A stretch of DNA of 64,000 nucleotides from Psammoneis japonica (lineage: Eukaryota): assembly GCA_008632985.1 (NCBI GenBank), contig QPGO01000101.1, positions 124,001-188,000 on the forward strand. Direction: 5' to 3'. The position numbers were made by a program, and so were the translations under genes. Below are positions 1 to 64,000 of the stretch, one piece after another. Every line of letters begins with the position of its first letter. Position 1 is the stretch's first letter. The notes below the pieces were generated by a model. It made no database searches and had not been told where the DNA came from. It saw only the letters and a program-made list of their open reading frames with translations.

Positions 1-840
1 CCGAGTTGCAAGTTGGTTTTTGAGGTTTTCAAAAAGTTGGAGGGAAGAGACAGCACCACTGTTGCTGAGCTGGCTGAGTTCAAACCTGGTGACTTTGGTG
101 CAAAAGATGCATTTTTGACCTCATCCATGATTTCTCACATGCAGAGTCAGCGCTGGCTGTGCAGCAGCACACAGGCTGAATGCCCATTGCAAAATGGTGC
201 AAACAAGTGTTTTGTCTCAACCTCCAAACAGCAGCTGTGGTGCACAAAATCTTCAAGATTTTGGGCAAAGCCAACCATTGTGCATTGCAACATGTGCTTT
301 TCAGTGAAAAACATTTGAGCCAACACAGATTGTGCCTGGCACAGATTTGAGGGATTGTTTTGATTTTGTGTGGGGGACAAATCCAGCTCAAGACATTCCT
401 TTGGTCAAGATGGACTCACAAGCCCCAGCTTGTTGTCGACCCACTGCTGAAATTGACAAAACCTCCACAGCAGCTGAAGCACATTCTTCTCCCCTAAGCA
501 GTGCTGCAGCGGCTGTGAGTTTGGGTGCCACAGCTGCTCCAGCCCATGACCAGCTTGGCAACAGCCGGTGTGCCCTCAGCACTTCAGACACAAAAACCTT
601 GTTGGTTGACAGAAAAGACTCTGGGTGAGCAGGCGAACAAAACAGCCACCAACAAAAAGCCAACAACCTTGAGATGCACACCACTGGTCAGATGCACAGC
701 ACAAATCAATAAAGTTGTCATTTTTTGCATCACCGGGTGTGCTCAAATGGGCCGCCCGCCAGATCTTGGCTCCATTGAGCAGCCAGTGCCCGTGGCAACA
801 ACCTCCTGCACATCTTAGAAGATTGTGACTTGCTTCTCAT

Positions 841-1162
841 GAAGAGAGAGAGACAGAGAGAGAGACAGAGCATGGTGAGTTGATTTGGAAAACTCACCCA
901 ATCGAGCAAACTCGCATGTCCTCCCCCACCACTCGGATCTTTTTAACACAACAACCTCAACCACGTAAACAACAACAGCCAGCCGCTGATGAAGCCACTG
1001 TCTCACTCCTGACTTCGGCCAGCTTTGTTGTGCCTGCCATTTGTCAAAACAGTTGGACAAACATCCGAACTGGCAGCCCTGCCTTGGCTGCTCTTCATTC
1101 TTTGTTTGTCACATTTGACAGAAAATCGGCTTTGCTGATTTTGTCATTTGTTCAAGAGAGAG
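841..1162 (+). repeat. 5' pLTR-like direct repeat of the PLE, flanked by (GA)n
   Basis: Aligns by eye to 4383-4733 (e.g. tgatttggaaaactca, actcggatctttttaacac, gtgcctgccatttgtc, ttgtttgtcacatttgac). Confidence 0.9.
969..1031 (+). ncRNA. Defective hammerhead copy in the 5' pLTR
   Basis: CTGATGA at 986-992 and stems I/III are present, but the GCGAAA segment is deleted relative to the 3' copy. Confidence 0.65.
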
Positions 1163-1175
1163 TTGAAAGACAACA

Positions 1176-2440
1176 ATGGATGCTGCAACCAAGACCAGCA
1201 TCCCCAAATGTGCGCATTTTGATTCAACCACGGCAAATCCTTCTCAGCGGCCAAGGACACCCCTTGCCACCACCACCCAATGCATCAAGGACCATGTTGT
1301 GTCACTCCAACCTGAAACAGCCACCATCCTTGAGAAGCTTGTGCTCCAACACCTTCAACTGCAAGCCAAGGCCCACAACAAGGCCTTTCATGTCAAGAGG
1401 ATGAGAGTGACGACGAGGAGTTCATCCCCTGCTCAGCCAGAATCAATTTCGAATTTCAAATGTCAAAAGCAGCTGAACAGAGCCAGGAGTTCACAGCTCT
1501 GCAGGAGGAAACAAACAACCTCATTGCCAAAACTCAAAACGCGTTCAAAAAGCAAGCCATTGTTGCCACCAAGATCAACACAAAGTCCTTCAAGAAGAAA
1601 TTTTGGAGTTGCACGCAAAAGCCATTTGACTCGCAACAGAAAGCTTCACAGTGGCCAACAGCATCACCACACCTGTCGATGCCGCAGCAGTCACCCTCCT
1701 CAACCGCCACCATGAAACCCCGCTCAAATGCATCAAAGTCCGTGACCACAAAGCCTTCCTTGAGAAGTGCAAGACCGTGAACAATGTTGCAAACTTGCCT
1801 CAACCAATGATTGCCCCTGCTGGCAGACAACCCAGCACGCAGGAAGACAACAGTGCCAGTGAGTCCTTGTTCATGATGCAGCCACAAGCAGCTCCAACCA
1901 CTCCACAGATCTCTGCAGCCCAACAGAAAGTCAAATCCAAGCTTGACAAAATCTTCCTGAGCATTTGACTGCATCTTTGTTTCCCCATGGAACACTCACC
2001 TTGAAGCAAAGAAAAAACATGATGTCAGCCTCCGACTCAAAAAGATGGACAAGGAACATTTTGAGACAGAAGCAACCAAGCAAGCCAATGTGGAAATTGA
2101 CAACAAGCCTGCAGTTGACCCTGCCACCCTGAGAGAACTCACTCGCAAGGAGACAGAGAAAAACACAAAAAAGCTCACTCAGCAGGTGACCTTGCTCTCG
2201 CAGCACATCAAGTCCATGAAGCAACAGCAGCCATCAAACAAACAAAGGGGCCAAACTGCCACTGCCGGCACCTCATCACAAAAAGAAAAAGGCAGAGGTG
2301 CCTCGTTGGGTTGCTTGAGGAAACAACAACCTCAACGCGACTGCGCAGCCGACGATGCAGACAAAGACACTGCCAGCACCACCAAAAACAATCGCCGCTG
2401 CTCCAAATCAAAACATCAATCAACAAAGAACAAGCACTGA
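1176..2440 (+). pseudogene. PLE ORF1-like coiled-coil/basic protein remnant
   Basis: Frameshifted ORF pieces (1460-1780, 1651-1968, 2045-2440) with heptad-like stretches and a basic C-terminus. Lies between the 5' repeat and the RT, as in EN-deficient PLEs. Confidence 0.5.
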
Positions 2441-4380
2441 AGATGATTGCAACCCGAATCCATCAAATGCATGGGTTCATTGCTGATCCTTCCAAATCAC
2501 TCTCACACAATGCCTTCCTGCACCTCAGCAACATGCCTGCTTGGCGCTGCTTTGGCAGACCTTCACATCTTTCTTTTCATGACTGCACATCTGTGCTCCA
2601 ACCACCCAAGAATCTTAAATCCCTCCTTGGTCTTAGCCTCAAGTTCATCCCAACACCTTGCTTCACCAACAATGGCAACTCACTCAAGTTCCAAGAACAT
2701 GCCCTTGGATGCTTCAAGCCAGACCTGGACATGCGCAACTGCTTTGCAAATGCGCCAATTGACAACAATGATGACTGCAACCCAAGAATGCACCTTCAAT
2801 CCAACTGGACTCCACTCCCTTGGAAAAAAACTAAAATTGTTGAATGTTGACACACGACTTTCAAGAAGAGACTTTTTAAAGCTCTTTGCCAAACGCAGAG
2901 GCAGAGCCAACCTGCTCCCTCACCAATGCCGCGCACTTGCCTGCCTGCACCAACAAGATGACTTTGTTGTCACCCAATGCAAAAACCTGGGCCCCATCAT
3001 CATCAAAAAAACTGTGTGCATCAAGATGGCGTTTTGCAACCTGAGTGCCTTCAAAGCCAACGTGCATGAACGCCGCATCAGAAAACTTCCAGCTGAGTGG
3101 ATCAAAGAACACAAAGCTGATCTAACCCTGATGGAATGCAAGCATCTCAAACATCGCATTGAGACCAACAAAACTCTGTTCCCTGTCTTCTGCCTCACTC
3201 TGAAGGTGCACAAGCCCCCACCACTGAAATCCCGACCCATCGTCTCCACAAGCGGCAGTCTGCTCTGCGGCTTGGGCATCTGGGCAGATGACAAGCCACA
3301 AAAAGTCATGCGCAAGCAACCATCTTACTTTGAAAGCTTGTTGGACCTCAAGAATGAACCAGTCCAAATGGCAGCACCACCAAACTGCCTTCTTTTTGCC
3401 TCTGATGCCGAGTCCTGCTGCTCGAACATCCCAACAAACAAAGCCCTTTGAGCAATTGCGGCCTGCCGATGACAACACACGAGAATGAATTCCAAGATGC
3501 ACCAGTGGAAGCCCTCGTTGAAGCCCTCCGCATCATGATGAAACACAGTGTCTTTGCTTTTGGTGACACCTCATGGCTCCAATGCAATGGGCACACCACC
3601 CGCCCAACCACATGCCACGCTCTTTTGTGATTTACACGAAGCCACTCTCCTGGAGGAGTTTGGCACAAACCTTGTTTTCTGCAAACAATTTGTCAACGAC
3701 GTCTTTGGCATTTGGCAAATCACCAAGTCAACCTCCGATGCTGCTTGCTGGAGTGCATTTGCCTCCAGAATGAATGACTGCGACATCAATTGAAACTTCA
3801 TGGACCTCACCATTGCACTCCAAGGCTCCCACCTGCACACCACTCTCCATGAAAAAGAAATGAATTCGCGCCTGTGCATCCCTCCACATTCAGCTCACCC
3901 ACCTGGAGCACTCACCAGCCCAATCATGGGCATGCTCTTCTGCTTCAAGAATCTTTGCTCAGACTCCACCAACGAAAAACAAAGATGAAACTTCTTTGCC
4001 ATCGACTGCTTGCTCGAGGCCACAAGCCCAGCAAGCTCCAACCTGTCTTCCAAAAGGCACACAACCATTTCTTTGGCAATGAAACAACTGTGGACAAGCC
4101 CCCAACCAACCCTCCCATCTTCCCACATGTCCCATGCCGTCCGAATGACCCGCCATCAAGCGAGTTGCAAAAGACATGGAAAGGAACGATGGCCTCTCCA
4201 CCCTGCTCCCAGCCACTTGCCAACATTCGAAATCACAACCAACAACACATTGGCCCAGACTGCATGATTGTTTGCTGCAATTGGTCACGCAACCTTGGCA
4301 ACCTTCTTTCATGCCGCGTCCTTCGCACCTCCAACGGCCCCCCAGTTTCGTCTCACTGGATTGCAAACAGGGTGGCCACT
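2441..4380 (+). pseudogene. PLE reverse transcriptase remnant
   Basis: Motifs as listed for the element. Several frameshifts and stops; catalytic DD changed to ND (GTC AAC GAC) and Tyr positions changed to Cys/His. Confidence 0.85.
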
Positions 4381-4382
4381 GC

Positions 4383-4383
4383 A

Positions 4384-4423
<40 letters not shown>

Positions 4424-4733
4424 ACAGAGCGTGGTGAATTGATTTGGAAAACTCATTTGATCGAGTCTGTCCTCCCCCGCCACTCGGATCTTTTTAACAC
4501 GACAACCTCAACCACGCAAACAACAACAGCCGGCCGCTGATGAAGCCACCGCGAAAGTCTCACACTCCTGACTTCGGCCAACGTTGTTGTGCCTGCCATT
4601 TGTCGAAATAGTTGGATAAATGTCCGAACTAGTGGCCCTGCCTTAGCTTCTCTTTATTCTTTGTTTGTCACATTTGACGGAAAATCGGCTTCGCCGATTT
4701 CATCGTTCGTTCGTTCGAGAGAGAGAGAGAGAG
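4383..4733 (+). repeat. 3' pLTR-like direct repeat of the PLE, flanked by (GA)n
   Basis: Second copy of 841-1162. Less mutated in its 3' half, where it keeps TA and CG. Confidence 0.9.
4520..4590 (+). ncRNA. Type I hammerhead ribozyme in the 3' pLTR
   Basis: Stem I GGCCG (4532-4536)/CGGCC (4575-4579), extended by acaacaac/gttgttgt; core CTGATGA (4537-4543); short stem II; GAAA (4553-4556); stem III GTC/GAC; NUH = CUU at 4572-4574. Confidence 0.8.
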
Positions 4734-4985
4734 CCCTCACACCCCACAAATCCCAACCGTGACCATACCACAGACATGCAACTCGCGCGAACTCATGACA
4801 TTTTCAATCCGCGAACTGTGATCCGCGATTCTCGCTGTTGTCAATCGTGGATGCGCATCACAACAGCAGTTGTAACATCTTCTGTTTCGATGAAAAAGTA
4901 GTTGGGCCGTCTCTCCATTGTTCATTGATTTTGCATGCACAGCATTCGAGACCATCTTGCTTTGAATCATCACATGGCAGAACCA

Positions 4986-5593
4986 TGCAACAAGCACAAT
5001 CTGAAAGGCCGCTGCGCGACGACGACGAAAGCGAAAGCACCGCCACTGGTGCGTGGGCTTCCTTTCTTCGTTTGCATTCTTCTCGAAATAATGACACCCA
5101 ATCACTTTTAGAGAGCAGTGACGATGACGACGATGAAGAAGAAGCCATGGATGAAGAATCGATTTTAGAAAGTAATGTCGACCAAGAAACATCTGCGATT
5201 AATTCATGCCGTATCATGTCAAGAGCTCCAGTCACTGCAGGGTTCGCTCCTGGCGCCTACAGAGTGCATTCTGGAGGACAAGTTTCAAGAGCAAGAGCCG
5301 AAAATGAAGATGACTTGTCATTTACTTCTGAAGCAACAGACACAGAACGTGACAATGGCATTTCCCAACGCACCATGGCTCAACCAGCCACGAGCGACGA
5401 CAACATGCCTCCACTAGTAGAACCACAAGGCTGGCCTCAAGTTGACGACCTCTTGCTCGTCGAAGCTCGAATCGTTCAAGTTAGTGACAGAAAGAATCTG
5501 TCAGGCAAATTTTGTAAATGGCGAGGGGTTTGGAGAAGACCGTTTTGGAGAATTGGGAGACGAAAGCAACGCGCACGACGGAGCCAAGGATAG
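4986..5593 (+). CDS. Hypothetical acidic low-complexity protein with PGAY and LVEA motifs (diatom-type)
   Basis: Single ORF (track 4838-5593, first plausible ATG at 4986) with normal TA content, a poly-Asp/Glu tract and the motif APGAYRV. Confidence 0.6.
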
Positions 5594-6078
5594 AACGACG
5601 ATCAACCCGGACTCACTTTTAAAATATATTTCACAATAAGCAAACCACCATACGGTACGCTGAGTCGTGTGTTACATTTTATCCCTCTGCCAGATTCTTG
5701 CCCCAAAATTGTATCATTCACGACACGACGTATCAATGTAATATAGTAGCCATTTCCAGTTTGCATAGACGCATTTCCTCTTTCACGAAGAAGATATTTC
5801 ACATACGTATCTCAGATACTGCATGCATTCTCAAAACTGTCTCTGCCCACATGCTCTTGGAGCTAAGGACATGACACATTATGTGGATGCTTTCCGTAAT
5901 GATCAACTCGACATGTGCCGTGCTCGAAGGCCGTAAACATTCGAGAGCAAGGCTTCAACACAACACAATGCGATCCGATTTCGATTTGCACAGCAGAATC
6001 AATCACATTGTGTTGCAAAAGATTCAAGATCAATAACAATCGAAGTGCGGCACTAAACCTTGCTGACTATTATCTATA

Positions 6079-6298
6079 CCGGGGATAAGATGTTTCAAAA
6101 TACACAGTTGCGCAACATGTATCTCTTCTCATAGCCTCGTACTCGAGAACCTATCATAAATATTATATGTATGTAGCTAATTTTGTTTCCTAACGCGTGC
6201 ATTGCACAAGATCAATGACTGCCGGGGTGAAGATCTTTCAAAATACACACTTGCGCAACATGAATCTCTTCTCGAACAGCCTCGTTCCCGAGAACCTA
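6079..6298. repeat. ~75-bp imperfect direct repeat (6079-6153 / 6222-6298) at the 3' end of the PAN gene
   Basis: ccgggg..aagat.tttcaaaatacaca.ttgcgcaacatg.atctcttctc...gcctcgt.c.cgagaaccta occurs twice. Confidence 0.8.
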
Positions 6299-7563
6299 CC
6301 ATTTGACGCCACTAAGTATCCCTGGCGACCGACCAAGGACCTCGCCCGAGGGAAAGCCCGGAGGAATTGTATCCTTTATGCAGCAGCCGAAAACGTTGAA
6401 ATTTGGACTCGCATCTGGGTCGACTGCACTGTATCCAGCACATTCCGACATGGCACTGCACATGTCTTGGCAAACGGGATAGGCATCATCGAGCGATCGA
6501 GCAAACTCAAGAGGAATGCAAGGAAGAAAAAGGTCATTGCCGAGTATATCTGTGGAAGGATATGGATGATAATTACCCTGAGGAGATGGGCAAGAAGATG
6601 ACGCAGAAGTTTTATGCCACTCGTCATTCCTTGTTTAGAAGATTCTGACGGAACATTGTCCTTCAAAAAGCAAAGATTGCGGCTACCATCCAATGTGAAC
6701 GATTGACAATCAGGGTGTGCAGCACAAAGGTCCTTGCATTCTTCAACAGCATCGTCAAAAGCCATGTCCAATGGGATTCCAATGAAATCACCTCCAAACA
6801 AGTCCTTCCCTTCGAGCATTGTGAATCCACAGTGCGACAGACCAGGTGGCGTTGGTTGAGGGGTAGGTCGAGGCGTGGGCGAAGGAGTTGGGCGAGGAGT
6901 GGGAGGAGGTGTAGATTGAGGCGTAGGTCGTGGCGTGGGCTGAGGCGTCGAACCAGGAGTGGGAGGAGGCGTCGGTGGAGGAGTCGAACCAGGGAATGGT
7001 GGAGCAGTGGGTTCAGGAGTCGGGCGAAGTGACGGCTGAGGAGTCAAGCCAGCGTTTAGAGAAGGAGTAGGTTCAGGAGTCTGAAGCACTCCGGGATCAG
7101 TTCCTTCGGGAATAGCGCTGCTCTTGGAACCGTCATTATTCCCAAGAACGAGCACCATTGCGATTGTGATTCCCATGGCCACGAGCACCAACAGAACGGC
7201 TCCACCAATCATGTAGATCCTTCGGATGTCCCTTCTACTTGCCATGTCTTCACTCGGAGAGGCGACTGCTAGCACCGGTTGTTCTCGTGAGTCGACTGCT
7301 CTAGCGCTCAACAGTTCCTTCTCCTCCTTGTAGTCTCTCTCTTTGCGATCCATGGCTTCTTCGCGTTTAAAGGCGCTTTCCTCGGTGGCATTCATCCATG
7401 GGACATGGCTTGGAAAGTCTTCCGCTGCATCATCTTGAGATGTCTTGCATTGCTTCACACCATCGACATCCTCCTCCTTGACTGAATCAGTTTGATGATT
7501 CGACGATGCGTGAGTCGCTGGATCCTCAGCACTGGGCGACTTTGCGTCATTGACAGAAGCCAT
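6296..7563 (-). CDS. Single-pass membrane protein with Pro/Thr stalk and two PAN/Apple-like domains
   Basis: TM segment IYMIGGAVLLVLVAMGITIAMVLV; PTPxPT repeats; PAN-1 (DLFGGD..CKDLCAAHPDCQSFT..CFLK). Adding one A to the A4 run at 6610-6613 gives a second PAN (DILGND..CQDMCSAMSECAGYS..CCIK) ending GVKW-TAG at 6296. Confidence 0.8.
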
Positions 7564-9299
7564 TGCTTTTGCGTCACTTTCTTGTTAGTCAGAGCCGATT
7601 GCTTTAATATCGTCGCTACTCGAGTGTTGTTTTCCATACATTGTGTCTTGCTTCTATTGTGCACGTCTACAGTGCCACCACGACTTAGAAAATGAGACGA
7701 GGCAAGAGACGATCGAGTGCGCAACGCCGCACGATTCTCATTCTCGTCCAATAGCAACCGCAGAAAGAATAGGGTTTTCATGATGGAGCGACACGAGGCT
7801 TCTCATCGTCAAAAATAACATGACTGACCATCGCGTTTTTGGTTTTTGATGCTTGCATTTTCAAGCAGCTATTGCTCACCCGCGTTTGCGCGTTGTTGAC
7901 AAGGCCTGTCAATCGTCCGACGACTCGACCATGTCGACTGGATGCGTGATGCCAGTAAACCTTACCAATAACTTATCTCTCCATCCTTTCTCGTCTCCAT
8001 GCTTTCTCTCGTTTTGGGAGCAGTGTTGCGTGCAGAGATTTGGTCATCGAACCAATATCTAAAGGCAGGCTCTTGTGCGTTTAGAATAAGAACGAATGAA
8101 TCACTTTTTTCAGATTCCAGATTCGACGACAGAAAGAGTCTGCGAAAATCTTTCATCTGTTTTCGTTTTTTTTTCGTTCATGATGCACATCCATTTCCCT
8201 TCACGATCAAAAAAAGGGGCAAACATTTTTGTTTTGGCAGTAATGTATTTCCCATACGTTGCCATGTAGCAGAAATGCCTCCATCAAAGATTGTAGGAGT
8301 TGCTCGTCTCGGAAAAAAATCGTTTCCAAACAACTGAGACTCAATCGCACTTTTTTTGTCTACTCGAGCAGCAATAATTACAAGAAAAAGCTTTTGACCG
8401 TCGGTCGTGCATGTGATGTTTCGTCACGATATTTGCCTCTCGGCCACCGTTGTGCCATACACCAAACCGTCTGCTGCTGCTGCTGCCGCATACGTTGAGA
8501 GATTTGCAGGTTGGCAAAAACTGCTTCATCCTTTTAATTCGTCATGCATGCATGCACACTGCTCTGTCTTGACATTCCAATTGACACCCGTCATGACTGT
8601 CGTGGCAAAAACTCCTCTTTTTGCGCCCGCATGAACCTCATTGCCCTTCTTGTTGAGAATTGAGAATGTACGCACGACACGATAATCTCTCGTCCTCCTC
8701 CTCCTCTATGCTTATATTCCATTTCAACAGTTGCACACATGAAACAACACCAACACATACACATATGTCTGTTGCCCTAACAACAGCATTCATTGTACTG
8801 CACTGTACTGCATGCACAACATCGCAAGGCGTCATCGTCAGCATGATGTTGCGGGTCAGACAGAGAAAATGGAATCCGGAATCACGGCATTTCGCCTTTT
8901 CGTCAATTATCTCTTTGACAACATCAATGAGATGCTCGTCATTTCTTGCTTTCTTGGCAGCAGAAAGTTGCCTGTTTGTTCAGCTGGGAGGCAGGACAGT
9001 TTTGCGCATTTTGCCAATGACAATCCCCCCTGCCTCTTTTCACCGTTGGCTTTGGAGAAGCGGCGCTGCCAAGGCTCTCTCTCCTTGGCTGGGTGGGCTT
9101 GCGCGGAGCACTCTCTCAAAGCAGCAAAAGCCAGTGGCTTCAGTTCCATGCTGCCCTCCTCCAAGGACAAGTGGCAGCTGCATGTTTCACAAAATGAAGC
9201 ATGTGCCCCACAGACTGACATGTGATTTTGTCATTCCCCCCACTTTGCCGCGGAGGTGCTCTTTTGCACCCAACAATGCGCGAGATTGACTCGGCCCGC

Positions 9300-9700
9300 C
9301 CCAGCCCACTCCGGCGGAGATGGGACTCACAACATCACACTCACAAGAAATGTGGATGGAAACAAATTCAGTGGCACCACTCTGGTTGAGTTGGGCAATG
9401 TGGAGCAACTGAGCAAGTGGAAAAAAGAGCGGCGGCGGCACGAAGCTTTGTTGCCGTGAAATCGAAGTTGGGCATGCAGCCAACCCAAAAAAACATTGTG
9501 GTTTCATGCCTTTGAATGAAGCCAATTTGCGTGTCAACAACAACTGTCTCATGGGCCAAGTTCCAGAATTGCCCCGTGAATTGAAGGATTTGGTTTTGTT
9601 GTTTTTGGAAAAAAGCCAAGTTGTCGGACCGCTGAGCCCCTCTGTTGAAAACTTGATTTGGAACAGACTCATCTGCAAGAAAACAAGCTGTCAGGTCCCA
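9300..9700 (+). pseudogene. Degenerate leucine-rich-repeat gene fragment
   Basis: GNKFSGTTLVELGNVEQL and LRVNNNCLMGQVPELPRELKDLVLLFLEKSQVVGPL resemble plant-specific-type LRRs (LxxNxLxGxIP). Broken frames and TA-depleted. Confidence 0.45.
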
Positions 9701-11924
9701 TCTCACCCAAATGGAGCTGACCACACAAGTTCAAGCTTGCTTTTTTGCTCTGAAACAAGTTTCAGGGTGCCATGCCTCCCCCAAGGTCTGCGTCAATGTT
9801 GCATGTGGAACAGTCTTTGAGCACTTGAATGATGCCATTGTGGAGGACCGACCCCACCCAGCCCTTGCAAGTGTTGCACCTTGCAGTGTGGTCTCCCTTT
9901 GGCACCACACCTGGGGTGTGTGTCTGCTGACCAACTGTTTGGGCTCTTGTTGTGACAAGAAGTGAAACATGGGAAGGATGAAAACAGCAGAAGGGGATGT
10001 GATGCATGTGTTTTTTGTCATTGACACACAAGGATGAAAGATGTTCCATGCTGACACAGTTGAGTTTCTTTGCAGTGGCAAGCTTTGCAGCAACCTTGTG
10101 AATGATGGAACACAAAGCAAGCATGACAAGCACCAATGAAGCTCACTTGATGTTGAGTCCTTGAAGAATTGAGGTTGCTGATGGCAAGCCTCACAGTGGA
10201 GAGGAATCCTCCTGCCTGATCACCAGATGACCAACAACCAAAAACACCACAACAAAGTGCACCATCTGGGGTTTTCATGATGGAGGACAATGGCAAAAGT
10301 CCAGCACACAAAACAGGCACAGCAGCACATGTTGCATGTTGGAAAGACATGTGACACACACACAATTCTCACATGCTCCTGTGATGGTCTGGTCATGACA
10401 CACTGCACTGATCTGTTAGAAATAAACATGCAACAAAGTGCAGGATGAGTTGAATTCTTGATGCTGAAGCATTTGAAGTGGCTGCCTTGTTGGTGAAGCA
10501 CTCCCTCACCAAGTTTCATGTGCCTTGGCCACAGCAGCATCTGTTGCAGCCCATCTGCTGCTCAAGTTGGTCCAATCTCATGGCATTGAAGCACTTGTGC
10601 CACTGCTCCCTTGCTGCAACCTTTTGGCAATGAGACCTTCTCACTGCCAGGGCCAGACCAAGAACTTGTGCTGAGCAAGTGCTGCCAGCAGGCTTTGTGC
10701 TTGCATTCTTGCAAGCATGCTTGGCACTTTCCCTGAGCTGCAGTGCAGCCAGCTTCTCAGCAACAAAGGTGGCTGGAGATGGTCAGGATTGACTGCTTGC
10801 AGCAAGAACATGACATGCTGGTGGAGTGCATCAGAGCCATGAAGAGCCTGTCTCTTGAGGTGCTGACACAACCCCAGCAACATCAGAGTGCACGATGTCG
10901 CAACATCTGCACACATGACAAAAATGCATTGCCACATTATAAAATCTGCTTGTCCACACATGATGGTTTTTGTCATTTAGTTGGTCATTGATCTCCTGCT
11001 GTTCTTCATGTTTGAACACAGGTGCTTTTTAATTTTTGTGCTCAGCCTTTTTCACATCTGCTGACGATCTTTAACGACAAGCCAAACATTGCAATTGCAT
11101 GCAATGAAATTTTCATCATGCAAAGTGTGCACCAATTGTTCAATCAATGACTGTGCTCCAATTGGCCTGTTCGTCCGCATCGTCCTCTTCATTCCACATG
11201 TCTTGTCCGCTCTCTTGCAAGAATTTCAAATGCACACGCCGCTGCTGCGTTGGATGTTTCCTCGTCACCGTTCCAAAAAAGCCACACTGCATTTCTTGCA
11301 TTTGGGTGAACATCACGAGAGCAAGAGGTCCCTCGAAATGCAGAATCGCATCGCTGCTCCCCTCTTGACGTCATGTCGTCTGCTTCTTTTTCTCTTTCTT
11401 CATTTTTCCCGTCCTGTTTTTCTCTTCCTTCTTCGTCTTGGCGCCGCCTGTTTTCACCGTCTCCGGCGTCTTTCCATCCAAATCCTTCTTTTTCATTGAT
11501 CCCGTCGCCGTCACCTTCATCGTGTGTCACTTTGTTTTGGATCCATGTTTCTGACTTCTCTCCATGCCATCCCCATTTCCGAATGTTTCTTTGTGATTGT
11601 TCGCGTGCGTCACTTGAAGGCACCCACGTGTTCTTCACGCACCTTGACGTGCATGTAGAAATCCATGTTGTTTTCCAGTGCATGCACCCTTTCTCCTGAT
11701 GCTGTTCCACACAATGTTTTCTTCCATCAATTCTGCACTCCACACTGCCCTTTTCCGGCACAATCTCACGCAGGATTTCTCTGAGAGAAGTTGCGTGCGC
11801 GTCTGGCAGGTTTTTGTGTGTGAAACTCCAAATCCTGCCAGGCGCGCATGCAACTTCTCCCACGCACCACTCTGGCATGTTTCCACAGAAACCAGAATTT
11901 TGTGACTGATGCACAACCAATCTG

Positions 11925-12899
11925 GTGAATGCAATGGCGGACCCACAACCACAACAATCAGAGCATCAGAAGAAAACCATGTCAGATGAACTCCGTCCAT
12001 CCGCTGCTGAGGATTTCCATCGCCGGATGATGGAGACAGTTGATGGTTTTGTTCACGCTGACGCTGCTCGTTGTTTGGAGGAACAGAGAGCAAAGGATGC
12101 AAAGGCTGCTGTGTCAAGATCGGCAGAAGCAATGGCAGAAGCCCGTTGTGCCGTTGTGGCTGCAACGACCGCACTTGACAGTGCTTTGTTAAATCCAGCA
12201 ACAACCACTCGTGAATTTAAGCACATCTGTGTGCAGTTGATTAAGTCATCGATCGAGACACACTGTTCAGACAACGACCACATTGTTGCAGTGGAAAATC
12301 ACAGCAAAGCAGAAATGAGTTTCCAACACTTTCTTCGCGGCAACGCATTTGACACAAAAGAACTGGGGCTCCCAATCTCCGTTGCGGGACATCAAAAATC
12401 AGAATTGAGGCTGGCAAATTCTGACACAGATGCCAACAGAGCAGTGGAGAGGGAGCAATCTGCAATTGACAGCATCAACAAATCCATCCACCGCCGTGCC
12501 GTGCCACTCCTTCGAAGGTGACATCTGTCACAGCCGCTGCGCGTCCTGAAGGCTAAAATCACGTTGCTCCACGGGGCCCTTGACGATTTGAGAAGGAAAG
12601 ACGTTGCCTTGCAGTGACAGTGGCAAGCTTTGTGTGATCTGTGGCCAGGCACAGATCAAATGCGGGGAGGTGCATGGACCGCAATCCGGGCTGTGGACGA
12701 AGAAGCCGTGGCAAGAGAAAATGTCCTGCAGCTGGCATTGAAAATCGAGGCACAATTGGTGGCTGTCAACCAGCCTGACCACAGCACCAACTTTCAGCAG
12801 GCGATTGTGGCTGCCAGGGAACATTTCATGGCGCAGGATGACTGGATGGACCGTGTGAGTGGACACTGCATGGAATCCATGAGGAAGCAATTGCTCTAA
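11925..12899 (+). pseudogene. Probable accessory ORF of the Plavaka-type element (convergent with the transposase)
   Basis: Helical ORF pieces 11925-12521 and 12630-12899, with the same TA-depleted, CG-retaining composition as the adjacent transposase. No family recognised. Confidence 0.35.
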
Positions 12900-13346
12900 A
12901 AATGCACACACTGTGAGTGAATGACAGATTGACACGCGCATCCGATTTTAGAAACAAATCTGACCAACAATTCCTTCTGTCCTGTGTGGCCCAAACAAAT
13001 GGGGCCTTTTCTTGCGCTTCCACTGCTCCTGGACATTCTTCACAAACCAAAACATTGTCCCCAATTGCTTTGACAGGGACAACACACAGCTCAGGTGAGC
13101 ACTGAGTCTTCTCAGGCATTGAAAGCCAGTTGTTTCGTTTGTGATCAAGCTGCCAGCGACTGACCAAGTCTGCATGCTGATGCCGTTGCCTCACAGTTCT
13201 CTGGTCAGCTTGACAAGCAGTTGGATGGACAACTGCAAAAATCGATCCTGTGTCTTCCTGTTCGAAGAAACACAGCAAACGGGAGGGAAACTGTTGACTG
13301 CCCTTTCGTGTGCAAAAGGTCACACAGGCAAAGTCATGCCGTGGTC

Positions 13347-15922: not shown

Positions 15923-16312
15923 GACGAGTTCCAGGTCCAGGTGGGACCTCGCACTGCTGAACTGTGACATCGACAGTTTTTTGAATCACGTCGCATGTCG
16001 CGCACGTAGATTTCTACGTGATTTTTTCGACATTTTGTGTCATTTTACGGTGCACTTGTTGAGCGATCCGTCCAACAACTTTTGACATTTTTTGTTACAG
16101 CGCGATTCTACAATGTCTTAAGAATCGCGTGGGGCAGGCGCACTTGCAAAAACGTTGAGTGGCAAGAGGCACAATTGCACCACAAACTTGGCCGTTTGTT
16201 TGATGTTGAAGACAAACACATCCATTGATCAAATTCTCGTAATGCGGAGCTCGCACGCAGAATTCTACGGGCCCAATGTCACACGGAGTCCCACCTGGGA
16301 CTGGAACCCATC
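15923..16312. mobile_element. 390-bp MITE with ~25-bp TIRs and 4-bp TSD (TTGG)
   Basis: Left end GACGAGTTCCAGGTCCAGGTGGGAC; reverse complement of right end GATGGGTTCCAGTCCCAGGTGGGAC; TTGG at 15919-15922 and 16313-16316. Removing it restores the transposase frame (..ALTK-HFPLPP..). Confidence 0.9.
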
Positions 16313-39500: not shown

Positions 39501-39528
39501 TGGCATCCGATGGTGTCACATGGGAAAA

Positions 39529-39530
<2 letters not shown>

Positions 39531-39592
<62 letters not shown>
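39531..39592. repeat. (GA)n microsatellite
   Basis: About 31 perfect AG units. Confidence 0.95.
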
Positions 39593-39594
<2 letters not shown>

Positions 39595-52000: not shown

Positions 52001-52205
52001 GCGTGGTCCATCCAGGAGAACACGGAATCCGGAATCCTTTTGATGCGTTGATTCCGTCGCAATGACGTTGCCACGCGCACCGTCAGCCCACCGTTCGTTC
52101 TGCGCCCATCCACACCAAACATCACACAAAATCTTTGTCGTTGTTGTTGTGCATTGTAGTGCAGTATTCACAATCACACCTTGTTTGGAATATTGACACA
52201 CAACC

Positions 52206-56690: not shown

Positions 56691-57489
56691 TTGAGTTGAA
56701 GATAAAGAGCAGAGGCTTCCTTTTCAATGCATTTCGCCTTGAGATCTGCCATTGTCTTTTCGATCGATTTGAATTCGGCCGCATCCTTTTCCAATGGCTT
56801 GAGATCCTCCTTGAGTTGTTCGAGACGAGACGTGGCAATTTCCTTTTCGCCCTTGATGCTGGCCACTTGTTCTGTTTTCTGGTTCTTGTCCTTGGTGAGA
56901 CGATCAATCACGCCCTGGTCTTGGGCTACAATGCCCTTTCCAAACAAGGTTTTGCCACGGAGTTTGGGTTTTTTGGCTTGCGAGTCCAATCCCGCATCCA
57001 ATTCGGCAATCGCCTTGGTGAGGGTCTGAATGTCTTGATCTTCCTTGTGAATTTGACTAGTGAGCTTTTTAATTTCCGCCTCACACGCACTCGCCTTGGC
57101 GGTGCCGACTTTAGTGCTTCCAGTTCAGGTTGCATTTGCTTGTACTGACGAGCACGTGCCAGCGACGATTCTTGGGGATGTTCGGGATCGGGAACCAACA
57201 ACACCATCTCGTCCGATTTGTGCTCGACGCAAAACTGAGGATACGAGCCTTCATCCTTGAATCCATATTCGGACGGCTTGTCACAACGAGGATATTCGCA
57301 TTCGTACGAAATTTCCGGTTTTTCGGGTTCCTTTGTTTTTGCTTCTTCTTGCTTCTTAGCAGCTGCTGCTTGTTCTTCTTGTTGCTTCTTTTGAGCCGCT
57401 TGAGCTTGTTGAGCGTGATGGGCACGAGCCACACGTGCAGCAGGAGGTCCACGGCCACGACCACGTCCAGGTCCACGTCCAGGAGGCAT
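56615..57489 (-). CDS. Coiled-coil protein with RG-rich N-terminus and EsV-1-7-like Cys motif
   Basis: MPPGRGPGRGRGRG; CEYPRCDKPSEYG..PQFCVEHK..MV; C-terminal coiled coil. Frameshifts between ~57020 and ~57110. Confidence 0.65.
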
Positions 57490-57993
57490 AGCTACGATGA
57501 GGAGGATACCTTGCAGAGAGAGGAGAAGCACACGAATTGTGTGAAGTAGGAAGTATGAAGTATGTTTGATGTGCGGATTGTTCCATGTTGGAGGTTGGAT
57601 GGAGAGAATGCAAAGAATCGAAAAGATCTCATGTCAAAATGAGATCCTTCGTATGACAACGGTCGTAGAAATGATGTAGAAAAGACAAATCTTTTCGCGC
57701 GATTAACAACATACAAATTTATTTATGTATGAAGGGTAACAAACAACGTCATCTATTAAAATAATTAAAAATTATATATACATATAAACGTCGATCGCTT
57801 CACAAAATGAAACGGCAAAACGAGTCGATTGAAGCAAAACCCAAAACGCCAAAGAGGCAAGGTCATCATCTGTGCTTGTCAAGCAACTTATAAAGAATGA
57901 AGCGGTAAGAGTAATGATAAAAGAGATGAGCAGGAGCAGCGTGTTTCGTTTCGTGTCATTGCATCTGCTTTCTCACGCGACAGTGCTTTTTGT

Positions 57994-60900
57994 TTGCACG
58001 TTTTCGACGAAATCATTCTTCACAAAAGAAACGCATGGCTTGTTGTCATTGCAACGGCGCTGCTCTTTGTCACAAATGTCAATCATGATCCCACCACAGT
58101 CGAGTGCTGCATGGCAAGTCCCTTTCCCTTTCAAATGAGACAACCCAACAGAACCAAGACACCCAAACTGTGGCTTCGCGGCGGACCACAATTTCATTGC
58201 CTCGAGGATGAGCACGGGTGTGCCTGCATGAGAAACAGTCAAGGCGAGGTTGTTCATGCCATGCAAAGTGACAATGTGTCATCTGATGGTTGCGTGTTGG
58301 GTCCGAGTGCCATGAAATTGGGAGACAGTGACGATCTAACCACGTTGGGAATTCGCAAAGGCCTCTTTCAGGAAGAAATGCAAAAAAAGTGCGGACGCAT
58401 GTGCAAACATTACGACAACGAAGGTCATCCAACAACGAGGCATTGATTGACAAACAAGCATGTTGCAAAGCCTCTCTCACTTCAAAAGAATTTGGTCATT
58501 TTGATTCGGTTTTCCAGCCACAAAGGGCGGAGGCTGCCGACGGCCGACGATGCAAATGCACTGTTCAACAAGCGAGGGGGGGACCCAATGTTGGCACCCA
58601 CGGGAAGCATCCGAGATGTCTGTAATCAGACTTCTTGTGGAAATTTAACGTTGGAAAGCATTGTCCATGGATGGGTGTGATGCTTGACAAGGTCAGTCGA
58701 CTTGAGCGCGTAGTGAATCCAATTTTCGTCGCAACGAGTTACTGTGTGCTCACCATATCATTTTCTCTTTTCCACATTTTTTAGACGGAACAATACTACG
58801 CCGACAAAAGCAGTGGCCTTTCCATTGTGTTTGTGCAAGCACTACACGATGCACTGGACATTGTCGACAGGGATGTCAACTTTTCGTTTCGTAGTGTCGA
58901 CTCGGACGGCGACGGAACGGTCGACGCCGTCACTCTACTTCATTCTGGATATGGAGCCGAGTGGGGAGGCGAGGATGCTGATGGTCATGATTCAACGGAA
59001 CGGATATGGTCTCATAAATGGTCCATGCCTTCTTCTCTCCATTGGTATAGTAGCCGTGAGCGTATACGAGTTAACAAGTACAATGTCAACCCGTCCCTGT
59101 GGGGACTACGCGGTGGAGAAATTGGTCACATTGGAGTCATTTCACACGAGCTAGGCCATGCAATCCTATCTCTTCCTGACTTGTACGATGGAGTCGGAAA
59201 CGGAGGTACAAGTGGACATGGCATTGGGTCGTACGGTCTCATGAGCAACAGCTGGGGTTTCGATGGGACGCAGTACTATCCTCCAATCATGTCGCCATGG
59301 AGCAAGATTCAAATGGGATGGCTCAAGCCCAAGTTGATCACAACCGAGGGTACATTTACAATTGAAGCGTCAGCCTTTACACCCGACGTTTACCGGATCA
59401 ATCTCAAAAATGACCCTCAATCCTCCGAGTACCTTCTCATTGAGAATCGACAAGCTGCAAGTTTTGACGCCAAGCTGCCACAAGGAGGACTTGCAATCTG
59501 GCACATTGACGAAGAAGCTGGGCATTACAGAAATGGCTTTCCGTCACAAAGCGGATGGCCTCAAAACGGAAATCATTATCGTGTAGCATTGCTGCAGGCG
59601 GATGGGAGGTACGACTTGGAACGAGGCCGCAATCGCGGAGATGAAAATGACTTGTATCATGCCGGCGGGATCACATACATTGGCCCATCGGACGCAATCG
59701 GACCATTTCCAAACACCGACTCGTATCAAGATGGAATTGTTACAAAGTCTGGCATTATGATCCATAGCATCAGTCGTGCCAGCAACGTCATGAGATTCGC
59801 CGTCTCGTTTGTGGACAATAAGAGCGCACCACTCATGCTTTATACCGAGGAACCAACCACCCGACCCACGCCTATTCCAACTTCGAAACCAACCCGTATC
59901 CCGACTACGCCGTTCCCAACTATCGGGCATGCTGTAAGTAAAGAGCTTGCCACGTCCTTTCAAGGAGACAAGGGTGCCTCGGGCTGCATGTTTGACGTCC
60001 GACCGCTCAACAGCTTGTATCTTGATGGAATGGACATTCATACCGACTCGACTGGGTACCTTTTGATTGAGATTTGGACCAAGCCGGGAACGTATAAGGG
60101 ATTCGAGACAAATAACAGTGAATGGAGTTTGGTCAACAAAGAGGTGATGCGGGGCAAGGGATTGGGAAATCCGAGTCCAGTACCTTCCTTTCCGTCCATG
60201 AAAGTGGCGGCCAACCAATCCTTCTACGTGGCTATTCGGACAGGCGGACAAGTCTATTCCACCGCTCATGGGCAGCCAAGTAGTAGTGGCAACGATAAGG
60301 TGTATGCCTCGAATCAAGACATTCAAGTTCTGGAGGGTATCGGAAAGAAGGGTTACTTTGGCCGAAGCAACCGCAACCGACAGTGGAATGGCGTTCTGCA
60401 CTATACGGTGGGTGCTGGCAATGACCGCGACTCTACGCCGGCTCCAACCACTGCAAACCCAACGCCACGTCCCACACCAGCTACCAAACCATCAACTTGG
60501 AGACCATCGTCACGTCCCACACCGTTACCGCCAACAACATCACGTCCAACAACAATACAAGGAGAAACAACCTTGCCTCCATCTACTGCATCATCAATGA
60601 AAAAGATTTTAACAACCTTTCAAGGTAGAGATGAACAAGCCGGAATCATGTTTGATATGGTTGCCTTTCACCACGTCACCATTACGGGTATCAACGTTCT
60701 GATGACCACGTCGACGTCGTCGTCCGCCAGCATCGACTTTTTGGAAGTTTGGACTAAAATGGGCAGTTACAAGGGTTTTGAAACCGAATGTGTAGCATGG
60801 AGACAAGTGGGAGTCACCACCATTCGTGTTGTTGCTGCTACGACTAGTAGTAGCACCCAAAGCAGTAGGTCTCGTCGTCGACGACGTATCGTTTCGAGCA

Positions 60901-61718
60901 TTACCCTGCAGCAGCCGGTTCCCATTTTGCAATACCGTGTACAGGCCTTTTATGTCACCATCAAGACTGCTACAGATGATAAGGGAATCATAATGCTCAA
61001 CTGTAGTCCGGGTACGGGACGAAACAAGGTTGCAGCTCACGACGAGAATCTTGCAATTTTGGAAGGAATCGGAATATCCTATCCTTGCAGCGGCAACAAT
61101 GCCGTTACTACTGAGAGCCGAATAATCTTGAATGGCATGATTCAGTATTTGCCCTTGATTGATGACGAAGTAACGCCCTTGCTGCCCACGCCTCCACCGA
61201 CTCGTACGCCAACCAGCAGCACCCATAAAGAACTCATGACCACCTTTTTTGGAGGCAAGACGGGTGAGGGGTGTATGTTTCACGTGATTGCCAAACAATA
61301 CAGAATTTCCATTACTGGATTTCGACTTCATCTGGATACCCTAAAGGAGGTCCCGTATGAGATTTGGATGAAACGTGGAACCTACGTTGGGTTTGAAATC
61401 AACCGCAAAGCTTGGACGCGAGTCGCTTGGGGAACCGTCCAAGGACGAGGTCGTGGCCGGCAATCATCGCCGCTTCTTTTGCATAGTGATGGATTATTAG
61501 TGGTAGAACCAGGCACCATGATTGCATTTTACATCACTTTAACAGAAAGCAAGATGCGTTATACCAATGCCAATAAAATGAAACAGCATGCTGGTTCCAA
61601 CTCGGATTTGATCATTACCAAGGGTGTTGGGAAATCCTATCCCTTTGCTATTACGTACCGTGACCGTGTCTGGAACGGAGTATTGATGTACAACACAAAT
61701 GATAGTATTGCTCCGTAA
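57994..61718 (+). pseudogene. M6-family (InhA-like) metalloprotease with three C-terminal repeat domains; exon 1 hypermutated
   Basis: Exon 2 (58785-61718) is intact: HELGH..LPDLYD, GLMS, YLLIENRQ. Exon 1 (to 58691) has the M6 pro-region (QP..TP, NLVILIRFS.H, GSIRD) but a TGA at 58444 and Cys/His at expected Tyr sites. Intron 58692-58784. Confidence 0.8.
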
Positions 61719-62709
61719 AAAGAATAGACATTTTTCCTTTGACATTTACGTCGTGAAATAGGGGAGATTTGAATCGTTATTTTGTGTTGTTGTTTCCAGT
61801 CTTGCTCGGCTTATTGAGATACCGATACGTGTTAACAAAAAAAGTAAAGTAGCAAAACCTGAATGAACTGCAGTTGATAACACACACAAGCCACAATTCC
61901 AATCCAATTTTTGTTTCTTCTTCTTTATACGTGTCAACTCGAACGTTTGGCTCTCGGTATCGCTCTCATGTTCAAAGTGTTGAGAGACTTGCTCCGTTTG
62001 CTGCTTCTGTGTGTGTGTGTTGTGGCACTGAAAAAATCCATCATCACGTTGTGTTTTTGCAGCAATGTCCCACAACATGAGCTCACGGTTGAATAATATC
62101 AACACAACCTGAATGACGAATGACGAGCGCACGCATGATCATGGCCGGCTCCAATCACCACCACATGATGTGTGTTTTCAACTGCAAATTGTCCAGCGTT
62201 GCATGATGCGCATTTACAGCATAATGTGCTGCAGAAAAAGAACAAAAGCACAAGCGTCTCACAATGAGCGACGGCGCCACGCACCTCCCGCTGCCATCAT
62301 GCTACCGGCGGACTCAACCGGTCCCGCTGCCTCAACCGGTCCCGCCGGCTGACTGACGGACGCTCGCTAGAATTAGCACGCACGTAGCCCTACGCACAAG
62401 CCGCCGCGATGGATGAGTTTGAGAGTGCCGCCACAACGCAATGATAACGCAAAGCGACTTCTTCTCGAAGGACATGCGATACAATCCTACCCTTGAAGAA
62501 AGCTAGAATACTAGAAGCTATACAATCATGTCTCTAAAGAACAACAAAATGCCACAAGTCTGTGAGTCATTTCAATGGATTGCTTGTCGTCGTCAACGGA
62601 CAACGCCGAAGATGCCGCGATGAGTCGAAAATCACAAAAAAATTGATCTCTTACCTTTTGCGCCAAGTTCTACTCTAGAGTGGCACTGTAGCACTCTAGA
62701 GAGTAGTGG

Positions 62710-64000
62710 CCCTAAACAGAGAGGCCATCCGCACGCACACCCACACCAACTGACTCTGCCAGCGAGAAGAAACAGCACGTTCGCCCCAACTCCATCTGTG
62801 CCCTGGTCCAAATTTCATCCATTGCACTTGCACCTCTCTACACCCGACTAGGAACTGAGTGCTCCAGGATCTGATTTCCCCATGTGAGCAAAGAGTGTCA
62901 AAAGACATCTGTCATGTAGAACATGGGCCTGGAAATGCCACTGCAAGCTTCAACGGTCAACGACAGTCACACTGGAAAATGACAGGCAAAATGAAAATGT
63001 GAGTGGAACAACGTGCACAATGATGATCCATTGGGGTTACATGTCACAGCATGCTCACTGGGGCACCTTTTAAATGTAGAGCTGAGTCGCCTTGCTGATT
63101 TTTATGCCCCCAAGCAACATCAGCGGTTCGTGGCATCCGCGCATTCAAGAGGAGGCGATGAACCCGCCAACACAAGCCTCAACCTTCCCATTTTACCCAT
63201 TGCAAAGCCTAGAGTCGTAGTTGCACCACAAAGATCTCCCAAAATAACGTGGACAACATTGTGTCTTGGATGATGATGACAACGCGGTTGAAGGGTGGGT
63301 GGAAAGGGTCAAAAAGGACCAGACACCTGTGCGCATGATCGAGACGCACCAAAAAAGGCTCGTGAGTCATGCAAGTTTCGTCAAAACGAGTCCAAAACTC
63401 AATCAATCACAACATGCTCACAGGGTCACCTTCTTTGGACCATGGAAAGGCTGTCTGACAAATGCCAATGTCGTGAGCATCCCCGAGACTCCATCGCATC
63501 GTTTTGTTCCCACGGCATGCACTTTCAAGAAATTGTTGTCGCCGAAAAACGACATGCTGTGATTGCGAGCCGACCAAGACCTTCAAAAACACATCAAGCT
63601 TGTCACAAGTCCAAATGAATGGCAAAAATAGATGCACCAAAAGATGTGGAGTGGGATGAAGCACAAGGCTCCCAAACGGATGTGCTTTTGTGATGACGAC
63701 GACGTGAAAAAGATGCCAACATTGCAGATGCAACAATCGACCGTACGAGACGATGTGTCCTCCTGTGAAGCTGCAACAAAGCACAAACAACATCTTTGGT
63801 GAGTGGACAAACGGCACAAAATGAGAAAACACAGAAAGAACTTGCCACGGCAACGTTGTCGACCATTCAGATGTCACCCGCACCGCGCAGCAATCGAGTC
63901 ACAAGTCGAGGCACGCAACCGTTTGTGCCGTGTGTCGCCATCAAAGCCCCCAGGAAACCAAACCAATGCATCAACCTCTTTGTGACAACAACAGAAAAAG
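62710..64000. other. TpA-depleted degenerate DNA running off the window end
   Basis: Few TA, CpG partly retained; no family recognised. Confidence 0.5.

Follow-up and report, generated by a model that had tools for sequence, protein, structure and literature searches.

Why is nearly half of a 64-kb stretch of diatom DNA almost free of a single dinucleotide, TA? The stretch comprises 64,000 bp of the Psammoneis japonica assembly GCA_008632985.1 (contig QPGO01000101.1, positions 124,001–188,000, forward strand); it is referred to below as the window, and all coordinates are positions within it. The initial annotation of this DNA described blocks that had lost TA by change to TG or CA and likened the process to a "reverse" form of fungal repeat-induced point mutation (RIP) acting on transposon DNA. 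We are highly confident that the phenomenon as described is real. As the best explanation as a whole, we propose that in chromosomal domains of the diatom nuclear genome a DNA-level process converts almost every TpA to TpG or CpA, and we assign this reading a probability of roughly 0.55.

When blocks were delimited by TA-free gaps of at least 200 bp, seven were obtained, which together cover 31,212 of the 64,000 bp (49% of the window). They are listed here with TA counts and ratios of observed to expected dinucleotides (o/e).

1–4495, block 1: 12 TA, TA o/e 0.043; CpG o/e 0.38
8909–20343, block 2: 54 TA, TA o/e 0.072; CpG o/e 0.52
28525–30988, block 3: 4 TA, TA o/e 0.025; CpG o/e 0.18; low-copy in sequencing reads
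34604–42415, block 4: 30 TA, TA o/e 0.058; CpG o/e 0.30, down to 0.04–0.16 in 38–41 kb
48612–52157, block 5: 7 TA, TA o/e 0.030; CpG o/e 0.23
57919–58623, block 6: 2 TA, TA o/e 0.044; CpG o/e 0.87; upstream region and most of exon 1 of an M6 metallopeptidase gene
63246–64000, block 7, truncated at the window boundary: 2 TA, TA o/e 0.043; CpG o/e 0.91

Pooled, the blocks contain 111 TA against 2,050 expected (o/e 0.05; 3.6 per kb), whereas the 32,788 bp between them contain 1,355 (o/e 0.59; 41.3 per kb). Over the whole window, the o/e was 0.34 for TA, 0.66 for CG, 1.48 for TG and 1.45 for CA. Inside the blocks, TG (1.75) and CA (1.67) were raised, AA (1.30), TT (1.28) and AT (0.80) were still common, and the GC content hardly differed from that of the rest (0.487 vs 0.470). 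The longest run without TA extends over 1,650 bp, which by our own arithmetic has a probability of approximately e^-68 at the TA density outside the blocks. A chance origin of the TA-free runs is excluded.

The blocks end abruptly. When TA o/e was averaged over the twelve edges, it stood at 0.00–0.06 over the 600 bp on the inner side, rose to 0.51 within the first 200 bp past the edge and was 0.52–0.60 farther out, where the two bins adjoining each edge are partly fixed by the edge definition itself. The block edges are steps less than 200 bp wide. These results agree with the initial annotation on several points: its block coordinates match ours to within approximately 500 bp, its "about a dozen TA" in 1–4380 corresponds to a count of 12, and the restriction to domains and the lack of a GC shift are borne out by the seven sharp-edged blocks and the base composition given above. 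Further, because TAA and TAG are gone and only TGA stops are left, the blocks are full of long spurious open reading frames (ORFs) in all six frames. We picked 39 ORFs of at least 150 amino acids (aa) from the blocks, and 116 ORFs of 90–149 aa lie in, or at most 100 bp from, six of the seven blocks.

CpG was also depleted in the five large blocks (o/e 0.18–0.52) but not in the two smallest (0.87 and 0.91). This depletion of the large blocks is a point absent from the initial annotation. The mass balance of the blocks approximately closes when both losses are counted, as the deficits of TA (1,939) and CG (1,111) are close to the combined excess of TG and CA (2,770). CpG decay is a mark of long-term cytosine methylation, and diatom transposons are CpG-methylated. 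Deamination of 5-methylcytosine (5mC) yields the same products, TG and CA, and its trace is present in the five large blocks; however, it cannot remove TA, and the loss of TA is the more complete of the two and, in the two smallest blocks, is unaccompanied by a loss of CpG. The earlier statement that 5mC decay explains only the loss of CpG stands, with the TA part not covered by it.

A sequencing, basecalling or polishing error on modified DNA could in principle remove TA from an assembly whose real genome retains it. Public reads bear on this explanation, which we consider extremely improbable. A run from 2019 (X1), available as Logan contigs, contains 93% of the sampled words of 26500–33000, and its contigs were placed on 20001–40000 at a likeness threshold of 80%. 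One contig showed 2 differences from the 4,347 bases of 28569–32915, and the contigs corresponding to 37012–38628 and 38612–39521 showed none, each at a 31-mer depth of approximately 60 and with no minor alleles listed. Clean contigs at this depth exclude high-error reads, and a strand-discordant modified base would give mixed calls. Three unrelated metagenome homologues of a transposase in the window, described below, are likewise almost devoid of Tyr, with Cys or His at conserved Tyr columns. What speaks for an artefact is that X1 is possibly the assembly's own sample and that its library type is not on record. The artefact that the initial annotation had proposed to check with accurate reads is thus not borne out by three TA-free stretches reproduced with 0–2 differences.

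Two homopolymer runs, C18 at 28567–28584 and G17 at 38612–38628, lie approximately 10 kb apart in inverted orientation, both in TA-free DNA. X1 contigs begin or end at these runs, and a tiny run (X3) matches only there. The two runs may be element termini or merely breaks in the assembly graph.

The direction of the change was read from conserved Tyr columns in three coding remnants within TA-free DNA, with a TA-normal exon as the internal control:

58099–58677, + strand, exon 1 of the host M6 metallopeptidase gene, from tblastn with 7 homologues
58785–61715, + strand, exon 2 of the same gene, 977 codons, intact and TA-normal
14109–16013, − strand, remnant of a KDZ/Plavaka-like transposase, in one frame with a single in-frame TGA
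2447–3448, + strand, remnant of a reverse transcriptase (RT)-like ORF; Tyr 0.30%, Cys 5.1%, His 4.5%

Among the 15 conserved Tyr columns of the three remnants, Tyr was kept once; Cys (TGY, where Y is a pyrimidine) was found in nine, His (CAY) in four and Arg in one, so that 13 of the 15 columns are now TGY or CAY. In exon 2 of the M6 gene, Tyr was kept in 23 of 28 columns (1/15 vs 23/28, Fisher p = 1.9e-6). Cys and His are both one-step products, and therefore both strands were struck. As read from these alignments and from the repeats that straddle block edges (see below), the direction is TA to TG or CA, apparently through A to G on either strand. The direction claimed in the initial annotation, with Tyr replaced by Cys or His in the M6 exon, the transposase and the RT-like ORF, was recovered in all three (5 of 5, 5 of 6 with one additional Arg, and 3 of 4 columns).

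The N-terminal part of the M6 gene lies within the block at 57919–58623, and a short intron separates it from the long ORF. Columns were counted with 18 homologues (ranks 2–19 and 24, minus rank 7; 99% query coverage), and a column was taken as conserved when Tyr was present in at least 60% of them. All five conserved Tyr of exon 1 are replaced, three by Cys (TGC, TGT, TGT) and two by His (CAT, CAT), and a single in-frame TGA interrupts the exon. Conserved positions other than Tyr are about as well preserved in exon 1 (58 of 73) as in exon 2 (309 of 426); the damage falls on Tyr specifically and is young compared with ordinary divergence. Judging from the alignment, the M6 gene would either have been inactivated only recently or still function with a changed N-terminus.

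The transposase remnant continues out of frame at 12829–14190. In Pfam scans of 74 ORFs of at least 150 aa, a relaxed rerun of 39 of these and the 116 block ORFs of 90–149 aa, its weak match to Plavaka (E = 0.003) was the only match in TA-free DNA; domains of viruses, RT or integrase were not found there. A HMMER search with the remnant yielded 1,051 homologues at E ≤ 1e-3. Tyr makes up 0.31% of the remnant, compared with a median of 2.88% in the best 150 of the 1,051 homologues. When it was aligned with the first 50, none of six conserved Tyr was kept (Cys 3, His 2, Arg 1), whereas conservation was high for Asp (11/11), His (6/6), Trp (5/5), Cys (4/4), Leu (17/21) and Gly (17/21). The RT-like ORF has three database homologues, the longest of which (P0281) carries motifs of the RT type. 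Its identity rests on these three, as Pfam did not find an RT domain in it at E ≤ 0.01. Four aligned columns have Tyr in at least two of the homologues; three of them now read TGC and one still reads TAC. The RT-like ORF thus shows Cys products only (3), whereas the transposase and M6 exon 1 each show both kinds (Cys 3 and His 2). For the RT-like ORF, DUF8422 was noted as a lead only.

These columns bear on the idea that the blocks are natively free of TA, being foreign DNA or elements that evolved without it. Some of the TA-free DNA has no relatives detectable in the Pfam scans, as that idea would predict. However, the conserved Tyr are replaced specifically by the two one-step products of TA loss, and exon 1 of the M6 gene is affected while exon 2 is not. 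The initial annotation had named element copies that were TA-free from the outset as a refutation; when metagenomes were scanned with an alignment of five members of the transposase family, all 19 loci recovered were TA-normal (o/e 0.50–0.66). Moreover, paralogous copies differ across block edges. A native lack of TA is contradicted for the three coding remnants and for two repeat pairs, and we consider it almost certainly wrong.

Three of the best 150 protein homologues of the transposase (P0185, P0231 and P0217, from ENA and JGI metagenome assemblies) are themselves nearly free of Tyr, with one Tyr each in 1,290, 1,200 and 1,127 residues. We compared them at 10 Tyr columns defined with 88 reference homologues (ranks 1–100, longer than 600 aa, Tyr above 1.2%). 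At these columns, one homologue has His 7, another Cys 7 and the third His 4 and Cys 2. A metagenome scan with P0217 found no relative. These proteins suggest that the TA-erasing process may also occur in other environmental eukaryotes, and the His-only and Cys-only copies suggest that it may act on one strand only. In this respect, and in producing enzyme-driven, context-specific clusters of transitions against mobile nucleic acids, the pattern resembles the action of APOBEC3/AID and ADAR in animals, where strand-coordinated runs of the kind hinted at in these two homologues are made. APOBEC3/AID, however, act on C and ADAR on double-stranded RNA, whereas the process in the window must work on chromosomal DNA and changes A:T to G:C at TA. 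A strand test in the window gave an over-dispersion of the TG/CA ratio (chi2/df) of 2.1–3.1 in the blocks vs 1.4–1.7 outside, a comparison confounded by native strand composition.

Repeats that straddle block edges place a changed and an unchanged copy side by side. The following were compared:

843–1162, + strand, direct repeat, inside copy, wholly within block 1 (self-BLAST)
4402–4725, + strand, its partner, cut by the block edge at approximately 4495; the outer part keeps TA and CG
24671–28291 (+ strand) and 44567–48189, two G8/CEMIP gene copies, 94.7% identical over 3.6 kb, both TA-normal
28593–29089, + strand, flank of the G8/CEMIP gene in block 3; paralogue at 48479–48972

In the first pair, CA or TG of the inside copy faces CG of the outer partner at 11 sites, with none reversed, and TA at 5 sites, with 1 reversed. 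These direct repeats flank the RT-like ORF and may be long terminal repeats (LTRs), with 843–1162 as the 5′ LTR. The flank shared by the two G8/CEMIP genes is TA-free from 28525 in one copy and only from 48612 in the other. Here, TG or CA of the block-3 copy faces TA of the partner 5:0 and CG 5:1, and by our reading of the alignment, four of these TA retained by the paralogue fall before 48612. When both pairs were pooled, TA outside faced TG or CA inside at 10 sites, with 1 site opposite, whereas in the G8/CEMIP genes, which served as the control, the comparisons were symmetric (TA 14:11, CG 18:15). Copies that differ in this way across the edges rule out insertion as the origin of the borders and place the process later than these duplications. 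The alignments accordingly show change in place, after insertion or duplication and on both strands, with sharp borders that need not coincide with the ends of elements. The flanks are 84.3% identical, compared with 94.7% for the genes; their differences include 28 transversions, and the divergence is therefore not by itself evidence of acceleration. A purine/pyrimidine-coded self-comparison of the window revealed no repeats beyond the BLAST pairs.

Hyperediting of transposon RNA by an ADAR-like A-to-I enzyme, followed by reverse transcription and insertion of the edited copies, would also convert A to G. ADARs prefer a 5′ U (10.64898/2026.01.13.699255, main text). The three changed Tyr of the RT-like ORF, all Cys and hence sense-strand A to G, are of the kind that it would leave. 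Yet a cut-and-paste KDZ-type transposase and a host exon are equally affected, both on both strands; the repeat copies differ by the side of the block edge on which they lie, with borders cutting through the repeats; and the blocks include non-coding flanks. RNA editing with retrotransposition cannot have produced the changes in the DNA transposon, in the host exon or in the repeats that straddle block edges, and we give it next to no weight for the blocks as a whole.

The contents of the blocks that could be identified are the RT-like remnant with its direct repeats, the KDZ-type transposase, a high-copy repeat and the host exon. The high-copy repeat occupies 34.0–37.3 kb (to 37342), with a summed contig depth of 785–11,181 vs approximately 60 elsewhere. 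Depth in 28.5–31.0 kb and 37.3–39.3 kb is 58–132, so that these parts are low-copy at a likeness of at least 80%. The transposase, the RT-like remnant and the high-copy repeat uphold the description of the target as transposon DNA, whereas the host exon and much unannotated low-copy DNA do not fit it. The contents show a process indifferent to the type of DNA, as it has struck a transposon of the cut-and-paste kind, an RT element and a host exon as well as low-copy DNA. At 34632–34633, the window has TG where CA stands in each of the 17 contigs of the high-copy repeat that overlap these positions, as expected if an ancestral TA or CG was resolved on opposite strands in different copies.

How far does the likeness to fungal RIP extend? 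In both cases dinucleotide-specific transitions ruin mobile DNA where it lies while the genes next to it stay intact, and RIP too can reach adjacent single-copy DNA. However, RIP makes TpA from CpA, whereas here TpA is destroyed (o/e 0.05); RIP creates stop codons, whereas here TAA and TAG are removed, none is created and ORFs are inflated. The trigger also differs, as the 3.6-kb duplicate at 94.7% identity is untouched and some of the affected DNA is low-copy. The G8/CEMIP copies show that duplication alone is apparently not the trigger, unless that duplication postdates the activity. RIP was rejected on these three grounds, the opposite direction, the lack of stops and, with the same proviso, the trigger. 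The phrase "reverse RIP" is apt for the outcome and fails for the trigger, as the duplicated G8/CEMIP genes are TA-normal.

The residual TA are not distributed evenly over sequence contexts. We compared the 111 TA of the blocks with the 1,355 outside in strand-collapsed tetranucleotides and expressed survival as the former over the latter. Survival was low for ATAT (0/116), ATAC (2/210), ATAG (3/166), GTAC (3/78) and ATAA (8/190) and higher for CTAC (16/206), GTAA (21/181), CTAG (8/51), CTAA (27/87) and TTAA (23/70). Uniform survival was rejected (chi2 150 on 9 df). An additive model with four parameters, in which the base 3′ of the target A alone determines the loss term of each strand, fitted all ten classes (chi2 2.4 on 6 df), with loss terms of 2.89 for T, 1.65 for C, 0.82 for G and 0.47 for A. 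The process has an extended sequence preference, as these counts show, and the facts as a whole call for one that gives only transitions. Since the site is a palindrome, letting the loss depend on the base at −2 from the A, in the order A > G > C > T, gives exactly the same model, and the 13 changed Tyr codons, judged by the base preceding each, do not separate the −2 from the +1 reading.

This symmetry leaves room for an attack on thymine. A dioxygenase of the TET/JBP type could oxidize T at TpA in silenced DNA to 5-hydroxymethyluracil (5hmU) or 5-formyluracil, which would pair with G and lead to T to C, seen as A to G when the opposite strand is read. Oxidized thymine mispairs with G. An attack on T would leave exactly the sequence pattern that an attack on A leaves, and the order A > G > C > T of the context model can just as well be taken as the effect of the base that precedes the T. 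For dinoflagellates, 5hmU has been described as enriched over repeats (PMC11071213) and linked to the silencing of transposable elements (PMC11572971). On the other hand, the base-resolution map of Breviolum minutum is reported to show no sequence motif for 5hmU (PMC11071213), and evidence of 5hmU in diatoms was not met in the literature that we looked at. We regard thymine chemistry as unlikely, although still deserving of attention.

For the DNA-level process that we favour, the change would be a transition from A:T to G:C, on either strand of the TA palindrome. The domains would be silenced, 5mC-marked repeat islands, which would explain the co-located but slower decay of CpG, and the agent may be an enzyme recruited to silenced chromatin. 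The most likely candidate is a TA-preferring DNA adenine deaminase, converting A to inosine that would be read as G, as proposed for the alga discussed below. The signature shows the 5′ T requirement expected of an ADAT2/TadA-like deaminase. This requirement mirrors U33–A34 in tRNA. Adenine deamination would require the fewest assumptions of the chemistries considered, and we put it close to, though somewhat below, an even chance. Mobile DNA would be permanently disabled by missense changes, above all the loss of Tyr, and by the loss of TA-containing signals, and no stop codons would be created by the process.

The initial annotation had also proposed error-prone repair or a methyl-adenine pathway, in which heterochromatic TpA carrying N6-methyladenine, or repeatedly nicked, would be resynthesized by a misinserting polymerase. 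The restriction to domains and the specificity for a palindromic site fit a maintenance-type modification at TA. Nothing in the analysis supports this route beyond that fit, and the change is almost exclusively TA to TG or CA, with AA, AT and TT spared, which is narrower than polymerase signatures. The known polymerase signatures are broader than a TA-only outcome. We consider it quite improbable.

A close counterpart of the pattern in the window has been reported. In the chlorarachniophyte Bigelowiella natans, a 2026 preprint describes hypermutation from A to G or T to C exclusively at TpA (Mettrop et al., bioRxiv 10.64898/2026.01.13.699255). According to its main text, 230 of 231 mutations in two viral inserts, one from a nucleocytoplasmic large DNA virus (NCLDV) and one from a virophage, in mutation-accumulation lines were A to G or T to C, all at TpA. 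Genome-wide, 124 clusters were depleted in TpA and enriched in CpA and TpG, and low-TpA coding sequences were enriched for RT and DDE domains. The authors propose adenine deamination with an ADAT2-like candidate enzyme, and for some of the lines they report a raised de novo rate, approximately 1e-7 to 1e-6 per site and generation (10.64898/2026.01.13.699255). The finding in the window is a further case of this very recently described process, not its first description.

The two B. natans-type features, TpA-only transitions and regional restriction, are both present here. In both species, as far as the main text of the preprint goes, the changes occur only at TpA and give TpG or CpA, neighbouring DNA is normal, and a single-copy target is possible. 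The differences are several. The host there is a chlorarachniophyte and here a diatom, of another supergroup lineage. The NCLDV insert has a Rho of 0.45, whereas the window is near saturation, with a TA o/e of 0.05 over 49% of its length. Viral inserts are affected there, and here transposon remnants, unannotated DNA and a host exon, with no viral genes found. Decay of CpG accompanies the loss of TA in the same blocks here, and CpG is not mentioned in the preprint's main text; a term search of that text also returned no mention of sequence context or diatoms. The earlier statement that no description was known for diatoms agrees with our literature searches, in which no report of TpA hypermutation in diatoms was found, but the same signature had been reported in B. 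natans.

The mutations, generations and sites given in the main text of the preprint (231 mutations, 3,132 generations, 6,169 + 2,300 TpA sites) allow an estimate of the rate. By our own arithmetic, extrapolated across species, it would be approximately 9e-6 per TpA per generation, equivalent to a half-life of approximately 80,000 generations. Such a rate would account for saturation even though the DNA is in other respects well preserved. The remnants show a process much faster than background divergence.

Several points weigh against the proposed conversion by a DNA-level process in silenced domains. One concerns present activity and involves a recent duplicate:

13347–14153, tandem duplication, 2 × 402 bp with 2 differences, within the transposase remnant in block 2

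Three residual TA (TTAC, TTAG and CTAG, all slow contexts) are intact in both copies, so that all six have escaped since the duplication. Further, CpG decay is absent from the two smallest blocks, and the link with 5mC is a correlation over five blocks, not a rule. The identity as transposable elements covers only part of the blocks, a host M6 exon is among the targets, which are then not strictly foreign DNA, and viral genes were absent from the Pfam ORF scans. The flanking-base preference uses the non-block DNA of the window as an approximation of the ancestral spectrum of TA contexts. As TA is its own complement, the sequence cannot by itself tell whether A or T was attacked. Lastly, if X1 is from the same sample as the assembly, it is a check of accuracy rather than an independent strain, and it excludes consensus or basecalling error only if it is a run of accurate reads, which its clean contigs imply but do not prove.

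The TA-normal DNA contains long, mostly uninterrupted genes. In addition to the G8/CEMIP copies and M6 exon 2, the following were identified:

TA-normal DNA between the blocks, a PAN-domain protein and a short-chain dehydrogenase (Pfam)
20868–23924 and 31194–34286, − strand, GT25-sulfotransferase fusion paralogues
56929–57633, − strand, ORF with the EsV-1-7 cysteine-rich motif (Pfam E = 9.7e-7), TA-normal and adjoining block 6

The best named relatives of the G8/CEMIP proteins are all from diatoms (Thalassiosira exigua 64%, Ditylum 56%, Stephanopyxis 54%), followed by Fragilaria, Seminavis, Nitzschia and Mayamaea, and haptophytes appear only at approximately 40%. The named relatives of the M6 protein are likewise diatoms. 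None of the matches comes near identity, and the host is distinct from B. natans. Relatives of the GT25-sulfotransferase genes are of mixed taxa (Chlorophyta, Haptophyta) and were not used for taxonomy. Two GT25-sulfotransferase and two G8/CEMIP genes form a paralogous cluster of cell-surface or glycan genes, with each pair split by TA-free islands, an arrangement that resembles a gene cassette which was duplicated and into which repeats have moved.

Mutation of one dinucleotide in one direction within sharp domains is a defence principle known in detail only from fungal RIP, and the version in the opposite direction, at TpA, from a single preprint on a rhizarian alga. New in the present case are the stramenopile host, the near-saturation over half of a 64-kb window, the transposon and host-exon targets, a co-located but separable decay of CpG, a quantitative flanking-base preference and the environmental hints. 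Two constraints on the enzyme are thereby added, namely, the flanking-base preference and the independence from CpG decay. The results also indicate that host exons can be struck by the process. In practical terms, TA-free DNA lacks TAA and TAG stops, so that gene callers predict long false proteins in it, and it misleads screens for foreign DNA that rely on composition.

Saturation in a diatom suggests that the system is widespread in marine algae, and diatoms are a group with tractable genetics. As a tentative generalization, which we rate as less likely than not, diatoms, and possibly many lineages of stramenopiles, alveolates and rhizarians (SAR), may possess a chromatin-guided DNA editor that would convert every TpA in silenced or invading DNA to TpG or CpA within a short time. 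It would show the flanking preference TA-T > TA-C > TA-G > TA-A or its mirror, act sometimes on a single strand, and provide a heritable defence without creating stop codons. If this is true, the enzyme, whether a new DNA adenine deaminase or a thymine modifier, would be a natural TA-specific A:T to G:C base editor of double-stranded chromosomal DNA.

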